This document shows, one piece after another, positions 6,586-56,448 of a stretch of DNA of 64,000 nucleotides. The first letter of the stretch is position 1; each line of letters starts with the position of its first letter. The notes below the pieces were generated by a model. It saw only the letters and a program-made list of their open reading frames with translations. It made no database searches and had not been told where the DNA came from. The stretch lies in assembly GCA_000004695.1 (NCBI GenBank), contig CM000150.2, positions 2,080,001 to 2,144,000 on the forward strand, in the 5' to 3' direction. A program made the translations under genes and the position numbers. This DNA is from Dictyostelium discoideum. Lineage: Eukaryota.

Positions 6586-7328
6586 TTATAAATATTGAAC
6601 ACCTATTATTTGAGAACCAATACATTTACCTAATTCTTGAGCATGATGGCTTTTATCACTATAATAATAAATTGTATTTTTAAAACAATAAAATATTTTA
6701 CTAACATCACCAACTGGTTTTATATCAACAAAACTAAATCTAGATTTTATTTTTTATTTTTTTAATTATCTAAAATTAGATAATGATAATTTTTCATGTT
6801 TTTTTTTTTTAAAAATTAATAATTAATAGTTACCCATTTTTTAAAATTTCTGAAATACCATTTGTAATATTTGAATAAATTCCATCCATACCACACATTG
6901 ATGATAATTGTTCCACTGATGAAACAAATAATGACCATGAAAATTGTCCATTTCCTTGAGTTTTTACATAATTCATCATTTGTAAAACACCTTTTGAACA
7001 AATACCATTTGTATCATTTTTATTATTCTCTATTATTACTTTCTTTTTTTTTTTTTTTTTTAAATTATTTTAAAATAAATTCAAATGTTTATATATAAAA
7101 TAAATAAAAAAATAATCTTACTTGAACATTTAATATTACTTCACTTGCAAACATTTCATATTCAATTGAATTTGAAAAAAGAAACCATGGAATATGGAAT
7201 TTTTCAGAATGATTATCATTTGAAAATACAGCTGGGGATGAGTTTGGTTTTGGTAAATCTTTACCTAAACTAAAATTAAAATTTAAATATAAGGTAATTA
7301 AAAAAAAGAGTAATAATATAGTTTTCAT
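6586..7328 (-). CDS. Hypothetical secreted protein with at least three exons (approximately 7124..7328, about 6840..7040 and 6586..about 6745). The middle and last exon boundaries are uncertain
   Basis: The minus strand starts MKTILLLFFLITLYLNFNFSLG, which looks like a signal peptide, followed by KDLPKPNSS...EYEMFASEVILNVQ and a GTAAGA donor. A second open segment reads ...NDTNGICSKGVLQMMNYVKTQGNGQFSWSLFVSSVEQLSSMCGMDGIYSNITNGISEILKNG. A third reads FSFVDIKPVGDVSKIFYCFKNTIYYYSDKSHHAQELGKCIGSQIIGVQYL* with its stop at 6586-6588. I recognised no conserved domain. Confidence 0.35.
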
Positions 7329-7967
7329 TATTTATTTTTTTTATAATTTTTTTTTTTTTACTAATTGTATTTTTATTTAAATAAACAATATACAATAAAT
7401 TTTTAATTTTTAATTTATACTCTTGATATTTTTTTTATTTTAATGAAAGAAATCTTGATAAGATTTATTTTTGTTTGTAGTTAAAAATGGTGTGAAATTT
7501 TTAGTTTTTTTTTTTTTTATTTTTTTTTTCTTTTTAATATTTCAATTTTCCAAGATATTGTTTATTTTTGGACCAAAAATAAGTGTGCCCCAAAACATAT
7601 AGTCTGAAGAAATAAAATAGTTATCGGATTTAAAAAATAGTTGTCAAAAATTGAAAAAATAAAAAAAAGAAAATAAAAACCATGAAAACACTAAATTATT
7701 AATATATTATTTCCAAATTTTTTTTTTCTTATCTTTTTTTTTTTTTTTAATGGGTTAATTACAACAATTATTTATTTCTTTGTTAAATTAAAAAGATTTT
7801 TTTTTTTAAAATTAATTTTGACTTATTAAATTTTGAGAAAATTAAAAATTAAAAAAAAAATTCCCATAATTGAAATTGTGCACACCCTTAAATTTTTTTT
7901 TTTTTATTTCAACTCAAATTTTTTACATTATCCTTAAAAACCCTCTTTATAATTTAAAAAAATAATA

Positions 7968-8687
7968 ATGTCAAAAGTTAAAAAAATAAAAACAGATAAT
8001 AATAATAAAATATTTCAAGATATTATTGATTTTGAAATTTTAAAATCTATAATCAATTATTTATTAATCAGCAAAAAAAATAAAAATAAAAATAATAATT
8101 AATAAATTTTATTTTAATAGAAATGAAATATTAAATTATATATTAGTTTCAAAAAAGTGGTATAATTTTATATCGTTAACAATATCAAAAAATATTATTA
8201 ATAAATTATTTGAATATTGGTTAGATATTAATCATAATGATTATAACTCATTTATTGAAAATTTTAATAATAAAAATCAATATGATAAAAATAATTTATT
8301 TTTTGAAAGTGGTAAACAAAATAAAATTAGGTTTAATAAAGAATTTTCAATTATAAAAATCAAAGAATCTGTAACAACTGGTGGTCGGTATCATCAGTAT
8401 TAATTTTTCCTAATGATTTCTTTATTGTGTTGGTTATTGCTGCTGAAGTTATTGGTGTTGTAATGTTGGGTGATGATGGTGGTGTCGTATGATTATTCAA
8501 TTGTTGTTGAGATTGTTGATTTATTAATTGAATGTGTTGTTGAAGAAGCTGATTTTGTTTATCTATTTGTTAACCTACAATTTTTAAATTTATATTATTA
8601 TTTTATATGGTGATTTTGTGTGTGGCATTTTTAATATCTGGTATCTAATATCTGTTATGAAAACTTTTGTGAAATTCAAATTAATTT

Positions 8688-53096: not shown

Positions 53097-53977
53097 AATA
53101 AAAATAAAAACTTACAAAAAATAAAATAAATAAAAAAATAAAAAGGTAACTGATTTGATTTGATTTCTTTTTTTTTTGGTTAATCTTATTTTAATAATAT
53201 TATTATTGTTTTTTATTTTTATTGCCGTTGTGAAAAAAAAGACTTTGAAAAATTTTAAAAAAAAAAAAAAAAAAAAATTTTAAAAAATAAAAATAAAAAA
53301 TAAAAAAAAAAAAAATAAAACAAAAAAAAAGATTTTTATACACATTTTTTAAAATTTTAGATAATATCCTACTTCTTATCTTTTTAAACTCGATCGTATT
53401 TTTTTTTTTTTTTTTTTAAACAATATTTTTTATTATTTTCCTATTATTAATTTAGAATCATTTATTCTTAAAAAAGTAAAAACTATATTTTTTTTTCTTT
53501 TTTAACTATCCATCTTGAGGTATGCGGATATTGAAGTTCTAGGTAATCCAACCCTATTGTTTTTAACAACACTTGTGAAAAAAAAAAAAAAAATTATGAC
53601 CTTCATATAATTTAAGAGTGAGAAGTAGGGTTGTGGATTTGTTAGGGGCGTTTTTTTTATTTTTTTTTTACATACAACCTAATTTTTTATTTTTCACACA
53701 CATATTTTCAAATAAAATATGTAAAAAAAAAAAGTCCAAATCCCTTTCAAATAATTTAACTCTCTTTTAATCAACTTTTATTATCAAAATAAAAATAAAA
53801 ATAAAAATAAAAATAAAAATAAAGAAATATATAATAGCGGTCAACCCCACCATCATCTTCAACAACAACTTCACCATCATCTTGTTAATTAATTACACAT
53901 ACACTCTATCACACACCCTTATCAACTTAATTTATTTAAATCAAAACCCAACGAACAAACAATCAAACCATTAACAC

Positions 53978-54087: not shown

Positions 54088-54666
54088 TTAGTATTCTGTA
54101 CTATTTACATTTTGATCTATAATAATTACTTTTTTCCCCAATTTAATAATAAAATTAATGGTTATATATGGTTGCATAATATTGTGTGACTCACCTCTAC
54201 CTGTTTTTCCAAGTGTAATTCCTGTTTTTACATGTGTGGTTACAATATCCTTATGTTATTGATGATAATCAGAAAAACTTCCATGAGGACCACTACTGAA
54301 ACCACCTCCAATAGAATGCCATGTATGACCTGGGTCAATTACGGGATGATCATGAGATGGCAATTCTGAAACTGTTAAAAGATGATTTGTTAAACCAACT
54401 CCATTTCCTGCACCTATTGGACATTTACCACGAAAATCTGGTTTTGAAAATTCATGTTCACTTGAACCAAATGCATCTCCAATTTGTCGATATAATTCTG
54501 GATATGTTAATTTATTTAATGGAGCTCCATCACAAAGAGACCAACCAACTGGTATTTCAATACCTGTAAAAATATTAACTGATCCAGGTTGGATTGAATT
54601 TTCAATTTTTTTTTCTAAATTTGCAACTGCAAGTTTTTGTTTTGTTTCAATGGCTAATTTTGACAT
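54088..54666 (-). pseudogene. Phage tail-collar-domain (MdpB/'microcystin-dependent protein'-like) gene with one in-frame TAA (54256..54258). It would be about 192 aa if read through
   Basis: MSKLAIETKQKLAVANLEKKIENSIQPGSVNIFTGIEIPVGWSLCDGAPLNKLTYPELYRQIGDAFGSSEHEFSKPDFRGKCPIGAGNGVGLTNHLLTVSELPSHDHPV..., then * , then HKDIVTTHVKTGITLGKTGRGESHNIMQPYITINFIIKL.... This matches the tail-collar pattern P.GW..CDG..L....Y..L+..IG..+G......F.LPD+RG+.P.G.G...GL....LG...G.E...LT..++P.H.H, and the C-terminal motif HNNMQPY+.+N+II. Its GC content is about 38%, against about 25% for neighbouring genes. Confidence 0.6.
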
Positions 54667-54689: not shown

Positions 54690-54970
54690 TTACTTTGAAC
54701 TTTGTAATAGTTTATATAATAAGCCAGATTTCTTGATATAAATACAACAGTGACAATAAATGGTAAGATAAACATTAAGATATTTGATGCTTCTTCTTGC
54801 TTTGATATCAGCATTTGCTAAAGTTTCTGCACAATTTACCATTGCATTGGATACAGCAGTTGAAGATTTTTCAAGACCTTTAGAAACTTGTTTCAAACCA
54901 TCACCAATTTCAGCTCCACCTTATCAACTCCTAAACCAAGAGCACCCAAACTAAAACCGATGATTTCCAT
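54690..54970 (-). pseudogene. Small ORF with an N-terminal hydrophobic/Gly-rich segment, disrupted by a +1 frameshift; adjacent to the tail-collar ORF
   Basis: MEIIGFSLGALGLGVDK..., then a shift, then GGAEIGDGLKQVSKGLEKSSTAVSNAMVNCAETLANADIKARRSIK.... Same strand and same raised GC as the tail-collar ORF. No intron signals bridge the frames. Confidence 0.35.
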
Positions 54971-56448
54971 AAAAAAAATAGAAAAAACTCACAAAATAAA
55001 TATCTAATAATGATTGGGGAGTTTTTTTATAATTATAAATTTTTTTTTTTTTTTTTTTTAATTTCAAGAAAAATAAATAATTATTAGAATTTTTAAAAAT
55101 AAATAACTGGTAGGAAACAGATATTGATAAAATAGAAGAACTATTTATTTTAGAAGCTAATGTGGAAGTTTTGATCGTGTTCTATTAAAATTATTAGAAA
55201 TTATTAACTTAATATTTTAAAAAAAAAAAAATAAAAATAAAAATAATAAAATTAAATTGGTGCCAAAGAAAAAAAAAATAATTAAATAAAAAAAAAATTA
55301 AATTAATAAATAAAAAAATTTTAATTAATTAAATAAAAAAATTAAATAAAAAAATTAAATAAAAAAAAAAATTAATTAAATAAAAAAAAAAAAAAAAAAT
55401 AATAATAATAATAATAATACAAAATTGGTTAATTATTTACAAATATTAATATTGGTTTAATAATTTTAAAAATATATTTGTTTATGGTGTTTATGTTCTT
55501 TTGTTATGTTTAAAGTGATCAAAAAATTATAATTCAAACTTGTATACTATATTCATAACAAGCTGGAAGGATGATGTCTATATCAAGAGGATCAGAAGTC
55601 CATGGGAAGGGTTTGCCGAATTTACTTGATGAATGATTCATTTGAAATTTAAAACATTATGATTAATCGAGACATTTTTATTATATTGAGTTTGATTTTA
55701 TTGTGGAGTTTTCCCCTTTTTTTTTTTTTTTTTTTTTTTAACCCTTGCCCCTTTTTTTTTTGTAAACAAACTAAAATGGCTTTTTAAGAATTTATTTTTT
55801 ATTTTCCCACAAAAAAAATTCATAATGTGGAAATTAATAAAATAATGTTTTAAAAAAAGGGTAAAAATTAATAAGATGTAGGGGACTGTAAAATTAACAT
55901 TACACAATATCAAATTTTTTTTTTTCCCACAAAATCTATTTTTATACCAGTTCCATATACATTTGCTTTTTATTTTTTTTTTTTTTGATTATTTTGATTT
56001 TTTCACATAAAGTGTCATCAACAAATTAAAAATTTAATTTAAAAAAATAAAAAAATAAAAAAAATAAAAAAAAATTTTCAACTGAAAAACCATTTTTTTT
56101 TTTTTTTGAATAAAAAAATAATAAAAACTTATAGTGCTTATATGATCATATGACATTATTAAATAAATAAGTTTTTTATAATTTTATTTTTTTTTTAATT
56201 ATATAATTTTACTAGTAAAATTATTTAATTAATTTTTATTTGATCAATAAAAGTTGATTAAAAGAGAGTTAAATTATTTGAAAGGGGATTTGGACTTTTT
56301 TTTTTTTTTTTTTTTTTTATAAAAAAAAAATCTTTTATTTGAATACATATTTATATCACAAACAATTTGTTAAAAGTAATAAGAGAAAACTAAATAAAAT
56401 TATTTTCAAAGAAATAATTTTTTTTTTTTTTTTTTTTATTTGGTTGAT

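Follow-up and report, generated by a model that had tools for sequence, protein, structure and literature searches.

A probable unitary pseudogene of a virus- or phage-derived receptor-binding fibre protein on chromosome 1 of Dictyostelium discoideum

Described collar-domain proteins and the amoeba locus

The tips of the T4 fibre proteins gp12 (the short tail fibre) and gp37 are receptor-binding trimers, in which the HxH histidines of the three chains bind an axial metal. Within gp37 the collar domain is made up of residues 811-860 together with the extreme C-terminus, residues 1016-1026 (PMC12724248), and Collar proteins have also been described in virophages (PMC3671162, PMC12724248). The sequence analysed here shares the collar domain and the HxH motif with the tips of gp12 and gp37 and with the cyanophage A-1(L) structure 8kec. 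However, those domains form the ends of long virion fibres, whereas the amoeba copy is a stand-alone short ORF that lies without virion genes and cannot be translated in full.

In length class, and in the order of its motifs from GW.CDG to NFIIK, the amoeba copy corresponds to the MdpB-like proteins of about 200 aa that are found in phages and bacteria. Two of these, P0003 and P0004, are 36-38% identical to it over about 80-90% of the length, and P0004 is encoded on a phage contig that holds three tandem copies with an M15 peptidase gene adjoining. Unlike them, the amoeba copy is located on a eukaryotic chromosome, follows host codon usage and contains a stop; it is also about 11 residues shorter in one loop and extended by a C-terminal tail of 16 residues. 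Giant viruses and virophages provide a further set of Collar fibres (CroV E3T4R8, Orpheovirus A0A2I2L5J8, Organic Lake virophage OLV18/19, the tripartite tail proteins of DSLV2, and P0002). P0002 and the amoeba copy both have an FG..(D/E)..F loop that is two residues shorter. In the viral proteins (P0002, P0006 and P0041) the N-terminal part is usually a long shaft, either built of repeats or collagen-like, whereas the Collar domain of the amoeba copy is preceded by a segment of 27 residues, with neither a long shaft nor an evident signal peptide, and the two are not significantly grouped in a tree.

Candidate genes of bacterial origin were reportedly noted along with the D. discoideum genome sequence. 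The present gene is like those in having a domain otherwise found in prokaryotes and viruses, in its position among amoeba genes and in being assimilated, and differs in being apparently inactivated. To our knowledge it does not appear in the published list of horizontal transfers for D. discoideum. Our literature search found no paper that names DDB_G0269088, the identifier of the locus, or that ties a tail collar domain to a Dictyostelium gene. One paper does contain both 'tail collar' and 'Dictyostelium', yet it concerns virophages and polintons, a different subject.

The locus itself is already public, as DDB_G0269088 (EAL73133.1 / XP_646978.1, UniProt Q55EP2), a protein model of 166 aa on the 4.92-Mb chromosome record. 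It is named 'Phage tail collar domain-containing protein' in Q55EP2 and 'hypothetical protein' of Dictyostelium discoideum AX4 in EAL73133.1. Locus, name and membership of the Collar family are therefore known from UniProt; what the present analysis adds is that the stop is genuine and shared, that a different haplotype carries a further lesion, and that there are grounds for taking the annotated intron as an artefact. Taken together, we regard the locus as probably a unitary pseudogene of a receptor-binding fibre protein derived from a virus or phage.

The window, which is the whole 64-kb stretch of DNA that was analysed, contains one copy of the gene. The conceptual Collar/MdpB-family frame occupies 54088..54666 and is read on the minus strand, from 54666 to 54088, a point that an earlier sequence-only reading of this DNA had left unstated. 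It comprises 192 codons including an internal TAA, plus the terminal TAA (54090-54088), and equals DDB_G0269088. From an ATG at 54666-54664 the frame runs through 136 sense codons (54259..54666, minus strand) that hold the Collar domain, PSHDH and DPGHTWH and encode the sole product translatable without splicing; the 136-codon ORF at 54256..54666 is the only one listed at the locus. Codon 137 (54256..54258, minus strand) is the premature in-frame TAA. Beyond it, 55 further codons (54091..54255, minus strand) encode the TGITLGKTG hairpin, GESHNIMQPYITINFIIK and a 16-residue tail, LGKKVIIIDQNVNSTEY, that extends past the usual C-terminus of the family. The DNA encodes VGWSLCDG, KPDFRG, LTVSELPSHDH and DPGHTWH in frame before the stop and SHNIMQPYITINFIIK after it. 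The sequence-only reading had described a set of motifs running from GW-x-CDG to HN-x-MQPY-x-x-N-[FY]-II, broken by a single premature TAA at 54256-54258 with the frame open for 55 codons beyond; every quoted motif was found, and both the stop and the open frame behind it proved to be as described.

When the 165 nt after the stop were shuffled, 0.4% of the shuffles stayed open in frame. About 11% of 55-codon frames in the window are open, whereas the gene has just one stop in 192 codons, which argues that the inactivation is recent.

Family membership, relatives and base composition

The Collar domain (Pfam PF07484) covers residues 28-83 (GSVNIF...GWSLCDG...KPDFRGKCP; 54418..54585, minus strand) and matches the profile over positions 1-57 of 57, with E=6.5e-15 and 55.3 bits against a cut-off of 24. 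The PHROG tail-protein family phrog_9116 matches residues 26-180, and thereby spans the stop, with E=7e-21; a weak Gp10_C Pfam match also straddles the stop in the conceptual 192-residue protein. The assignment to the Phage_Collar/MdpB family that had been made from the letters alone is borne out by both profile collections. A family profile was built from 39 homologs, the amoeba sequence being left out. Against it the read-through protein scored 173 bits and the portion upstream of the TAA 115 bits; the 55 codons that follow the TAA reached 50 bits (E=1.4e-17) when scored by themselves.

The family motifs that lie beyond the Pfam domain, ELPSHxH, DPGHTH, TGI..(G)GG and HN.MQP....NFIIK, are all colinear in the amoeba copy, and the last two of these groups are both 3' of the stop. 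Two motifs deviate: DPGHTWH has one extra W, and GGG has become GRG. A segment of the form ..LG.TGG.E.. stands before H.LT..ELPSH in 17 of the 17 aligned homologs and is absent from the amoeba copy, which has an 11-residue gap against the profile at this place, where loop length is variable in the family. The most conserved family positions are H105-D106-H107 of ELPSHxH (54346..54354, minus strand), with P103, H105 and H107 invariant in the alignment of homologs. By analogy with T4 gp12 and gp37, H105-D106-H107 would be the metal-binding HxH between chains.

Relatives were sought among 1.84 billion representatives using the 136-aa part before the stop as query. At E<=1e-3 the family has 24,030 representatives, and the top 150 are mostly multi-repeat proteins. 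The locus itself excepted, identity did not exceed 46% for any relative in the 1.84 billion. The best match was P0002 (41% identity, 116 bits), encoded on contig L007, which has 31% G+C, is densely packed and intron-less, and carries genes for IDO and TrpRS. The closest viral relatives of this IDO and TrpRS are on IMG/VR contigs of 244 kb and 357 kb, and on account of these relatives on large contigs L007 is considered giant-virus-like. Two phage contigs followed, L008 (38%, 112 bits), with three tandem Collar genes adjoining an M15 peptidase gene, and L009 (38% identity). Identity reached 34% in named phages (a Microbacterium phage) and 32% in bacteria (Chitinophagaceae). The family is also present on contigs of giant-virus MAGs (L016 and L086), in CroV and in Orpheovirus. 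That the family is essentially prokaryotic or phage, as had been supposed, holds in so far as phages and bacteria do carry it, but giant viruses and protist virophages carry it too.

In the protein databases, no named eukaryote was found among 38 word-sharing relatives and the inspected clusters, all of which were metagenomic or viral, and cluster look-ups for 28 relatives returned organism names only for the D. discoideum entries. When 104 domains were joined into a neighbour-joining tree and bootstrapped 300 times, any grouping that included the amoeba sequence had at most 23% support. The make-up of the relatives, and not the tree, suggests a horizontal origin, which we take as the best reading of the gene; the donor could have been a phage or bacterium eaten as food, or else a giant virus or virophage. 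Because the family occurs in giant viruses and virophages and the best match lies on a giant-virus-like contig, a eukaryotic virus and a phage or bacterium appear equally probable as vectors.

The neighbours of the gene are ordinary amoeba genes: alpha-actinin (57.5-60 kb), a G-alpha gene, a GATA factor, a PDE-like gene and asparagine-rich proteins. A search for traces of a larger inserted element gave no tRNA genes and no Rfam hits, and between 53.8 and 56.2 kb there were neither other protein-like ORFs nor virion genes around the gene. A neighbouring small ORF had no Pfam or PHROG match, and a 50-nt inverted repeat (53734-53782) had no match in IMG/VR.

The G+C content of the window is 21.4%. 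Within the frame, GC1, GC2 and GC3 are 0.47, 0.39 and 0.09, and most host ORFs in the window have a GC3 of 0.06-0.14; the synonymous-codon score of 0.60 is likewise inside the host range of 0.19-0.91. GC3 is lowest in the N-terminal part (0.07). For comparison, the genes on the A+T-rich contig with the best homolog have a GC3 of 0.15-0.29, and the GC content at the locus on homolog contigs is 0.25-0.69 against 0.21 for the window. A comparison of GC3 and codon usage with host genes had been proposed in the sequence-only reading, and by it the gene is host-like. Synonymous sites have become host-like while first and second codon positions kept the residues of the family, which argues for a long residence under constraint. 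The earlier idea of a foreign gene that is now decaying is thus supported, with the refinement that it does not look like a recent arrival, being assimilated by its GC3 of 0.09 and only recently lost. We note that a long residence as read from GC3 fits poorly with the finding of no ortholog in relatives in the protein databases.

The premature stop, a second haplotype and the annotated intron

In a second assembly, GCA_054883475.1 (contig JBTAPE010000039.1), the 579 nt of the frame are identical to the window, TAA included, within 13 kb around the locus that are 99.4% identical. Short-read Logan contigs from at least six runs (L001-L006; runs SRR26869257/66/67/68, SRR28564541 and SRR24091729) also keep the TAA, as does L098. 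L001-L006 are colinear with 55057-54005 of the window, with nothing spliced out; compared with it they have two SNPs upstream and have lost 5 bp. The deleted bases are CAGGT (54328..54332, minus strand), which are present in the window and in GCA_054883475.1. Their loss shifts the frame inside DPGHT, so that ...VIDPGHTWH... becomes ...VIDPYMAFYWRWFQ followed by a stop, and the product, P0001, is 122 aa long. The family consensus at this place is DPGHTH, which the window follows, so that the intact form is ancestral and the deletion derived; since both haplotypes carry the TAA, the stop is older than their split.

The sequence-only reading had thought the TAA a possible strain polymorphism. Among the sampled strains this does not hold: the TAA is common to every sequence found, and the lesion that is polymorphic is the 5-bp deletion. 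It had been right to think sequencing error the less likely cause, given a second assembly and contigs from six runs with the same stop, and its view of a decaying gene gains from a second haplotype that keeps the TAA and adds a frameshift at 54332-54328. A second disabling lesion is as expected for a gene without selection. The amoeba copy has no uninterrupted frame that includes the C-terminal strand; the TAA in three independent data sources, together with the 5-bp frameshift in one haplotype, makes it in all probability a relic and not a functional member of the PF07484 family.

That the stop, or the gene as a whole, might be an artefact of sequencing or assembly, or bacterial or phage contamination, has prior plausibility only, in that the family is of phage type and D. 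discoideum is grown on bacteria. The recurrence of the TAA in the second assembly and in the short-read contigs from six runs, the contiguous linkage of alpha-actinin and G-alpha with the locus in both assemblies, and a GC3 of 0.09 that is far below that of any bacterial or phage relative found make such an artefact scarcely credible.

The public 166-aa model (XP_646978.1 / Q55EP2) avoids the stop by cutting out 78 nt as an intron (54201..54278, minus strand; GTTTTT...AAACAG), a segment that encodes F131-G156 and includes the TAA. Were this a genuine, recently evolved intron, AX4-type strains would make a Collar protein of 166 aa through intronization of the damaged stretch. The segment begins with GT and ends with AG, its excision leaves the reading frame intact with GESHNIMQPY...NFIIK still in place, and the spliced product scores 142 bits against the 39-homolog profile. 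Its size also agrees with real introns in the window, which span 71-217 nt, the short ones being 71-79 nt. The in-window introns were recognised as GT..AG stretches with a GTAAGT or GTATGT donor that break up a long open frame.

However, the donor of the 78-nt segment is GTTTTT and not the consensus GTAAGT or GTATGT, and its length is divisible by three. With 29.5% GC (70.5% A+T) the segment is also close to the surrounding exon, at 31.6% GC, and far from the roughly 11% GC of introns in the species; 17,300 introns surveyed in D. discoideum have 89.13% A+T and a median length of 103 nt (PMC2483917). Nearly all of the in-window introns with a canonical donor have 4-14% GC, the exceptions being an intron with 23% and a questionable candidate of 262 nt with 25%. 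In-frame GT..AG deletions able to remove the TAA number 116, and for this reason the existence of one such pair is uninformative. None of the 116 has a consensus donor, and on this ground any alternative micro-intron that would take out the TAA was rejected. Programmed read-through of the stop was also judged unlikely, as the TAA is followed by C.

The content of the segment likewise speaks against splicing. It contains T143, T148, G149, I150 and G156, none of which varies across the five closest sequences, and in an AlphaFold2 model of the homolog P0003 (monomer, mean pLDDT 69.7) the equivalent residues are predicted to form a beta-hairpin, with strands at 164-169 and 172-177. The 26-residue piece is colinear with the family, although on its own it scored 1.4 bits against the profile, being too short for significance. 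The spliced model scores 31 bits below the read-through protein, at 142 against 173; part of this read-through advantage is an avoided gap penalty.

In the other haplotype the frameshift is upstream of the segment and beyond rescue by splicing. No Logan-derived protein equals the 166-aa product, which has no equal entry in the collection beyond the reference annotation. An exact look-up of the 136-aa ORF and the 166-aa product in the contig index gave no match, a result that is uninformative for AX4-type reads and spliced transcripts. The annotation of GCA_054883475.1, from a second pipeline, instead gives a model of 654 aa that shares the ATG but covers 3.9 kb and runs on into the next gene, and automatic models as incompatible as 166 aa and 654 aa are typical of a broken gene. 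Judged by its sequence, the 78-nt intron is probably an artefact of automatic gene prediction and not a spliced segment, and we hold genuine splicing to be quite improbable. It is highly unlikely, in our estimate, that intronization in AX4-type cells represents the nonsense-driven birth of an intron in an acquired gene, with the other haplotype as natural null. If it did, the birth of an intron would have been caught in the act, with a natural null allele available for comparison.

Truncated products and the history of the gene

Among solved structures, the profile comparison places 8kec (E=9e-24; the long tail fibre of cyanophage A-1(L)) and the gp12 structures 1ocy, 1pdi and 5iv5 (E about 1e-10) nearest. 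Foldseek on the P0003 homolog model again returned 8kec and the T4 gp12 structures, together with the T4 gp37 tip 2xgf. On this analogy PSHDH (residues 103-107) and the C-terminal NFIIK would be the counterparts of the corresponding parts of gp37 and gp12, and the ancestor is proposed to have been a small Phage_Collar/MdpB protein of about 190 aa that formed a trimeric receptor-binding fibre tip with an HxH metal. As to a role of the gene in the amoeba, binding to bacterial surfaces is a guess.

With translation stopping at the TAA, no full-length protein would be made, the product presumably ending at 136 residues, or at 122 in the haplotype with the deletion, and so missing the C-terminal hairpin as well as the last strand of the collar. 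Such a truncated Collar and HxH protein could itself be the functional product, for example as a module that binds carbohydrates or bacteria. Both lesions come after the full Pfam Collar match (28-83) and PSHDH, and the N-terminal part has the lowest GC3 as well as 115 bits against the family profile. However, the T4 gp37 collar includes its extreme C-terminal residues in addition to 811-860 (PMC12724248), and the NFIIK equivalent lies 3' of the stop. Because NFIIK is cut off in this way, neither the 136-aa nor the 122-aa product would be expected to complete the collar fold; in the P0003 model the NFIIK strand is confidently placed (pLDDT about 89). The two haplotypes, moreover, end at different points and with different tails, and the intact codons after the stop point to a recent truncation and not to a settled architecture. 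A functional truncated product is, on balance, improbable.

Under the reading that we prefer, of a unitary pseudogene, the gene would have entered the amoeba lineage from a virus, a phage or a bacterium and would then have resided there under coding constraint until its synonymous sites reached the A+T bias of the host. A single-base change would next have created the TAA at codon 137, now present in every sampled haplotype, and one haplotype would subsequently have gained the 5-bp frameshift deletion upstream. Both this order of events and the loss of function are what we infer from the comparisons above.

The practical value of the finding is as a correction to the annotation, in that the 166-aa entry DDB_G0269088 / Q55EP2 would be a pseudogene whose stop is hidden by an invented intron. 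It opens no new mechanism and settles no long-standing question, and is the kind of thing to be expected. The locus would add one more case of a receptor-binding module of phages and giant viruses in a bacterivorous amoeba, kept until it had taken on host codon usage and then lost. With two successive lesions in different haplotypes, it may serve as a small natural case of the turnover of foreign genes in eukaryotes, by gain and then loss.

Collar genes in a row and departures of the amoeba copy

The phage contig L008, on which the Collar homolog P0004 is encoded, carries three Collar-domain genes in a row (6699-8642 of the contig, 210-221 aa), which is the tripartite arrangement that a recent paper describes for the tail proteins of virophages (PMC12724248). 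Compared with all aligned homologs, the amoeba Collar copy is missing approximately 11 residues (consensus ..rtLGatGGeet..) at window ~54379-54400 on the minus strand, between GNGVGLTN and HLLTVSELPSH. It also contains an additional W in DPGHTWH and a tail of 16 residues beyond NFIIK. The missing residues, the W insertion and the C-terminal tail may be lineage-specific changes of a gene that was functional at the time, or they may reflect early relaxed constraint.

Gene models and a small upstream ORF

In the annotation of the second D. discoideum assembly, GCA_054883475.1, a 654-aa gene model starts at the Collar ATG (contig L098, 6976-10846, equivalent to window ~54666-50800) and spans 3.9 kb, reaching into the PDE-like gene that lies downstream. 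No Pfam match is recorded for this model, and it and the 166-aa AX4 model are mutually incompatible.

Directly upstream of the Collar pseudogene and on the same (minus) strand is a small ORF (54690-54972), separated from the Collar ATG by a gap of 23 nt, which is unusually tight for the D. discoideum genome. Its translation reads MEIIGFSLGALGLGVDK, after which a frame change is needed to reach GGAEIGDGLKQVSKGLEKSS...QSSK*. Searches of the small ORF against Pfam and PHROG returned no matches, and its sole relative is a 107-aa gene model of D. discoideum, ACTFIT_008096, which takes a different first exon from ~55640-55548 via an intron of about 600 nt. Next to the Collar pseudogene, the small ORF may be another broken gene, which possibly arrived together with it.

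Within this minus-strand ORF (54972-54690) two SNPs (54951 and 54958) separate the Logan haplotype, represented by the short-read contigs L001-L006, from the window; from window to Logan they read AGT to GGT (Ser to Gly) and ATC to ATT (silent). Across the 579-nt Collar frame the two differ only by the 5-bp deletion, with no SNPs. The first 23 nt of L006 (GTGGTGTTGTTGGTGCTGTTTGT) found no match at any place in the window. They could stem from chimerism at the contig end, or the strain could carry its own rearrangement a short way upstream of the small ORF.

An inverted repeat around the Collar pseudogene

The Collar pseudogene lies, together with the small ORF, in the 2.45 kb between the arms of an inverted repeat of about 50 nt, GTCCAAATCCC(C)TTTCAAATAATTTAACTCTCTTTTAATCAACTTTTATT, located at 53734-53782 (plus strand) and 56235-56283 (minus strand). 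One indel is the sole difference between the arms, either of which has a long A-run at its outer side, and the repeat search gave a longer version of 104 nt at 79%. No further sites were found within the window, and a search of IMG/VR with the repeat gave no matches. The second assembly likewise carries the inverted repeat. Its arms could be the termini of a mobile element that is now dead, or the product of an inverted duplication within this locus.
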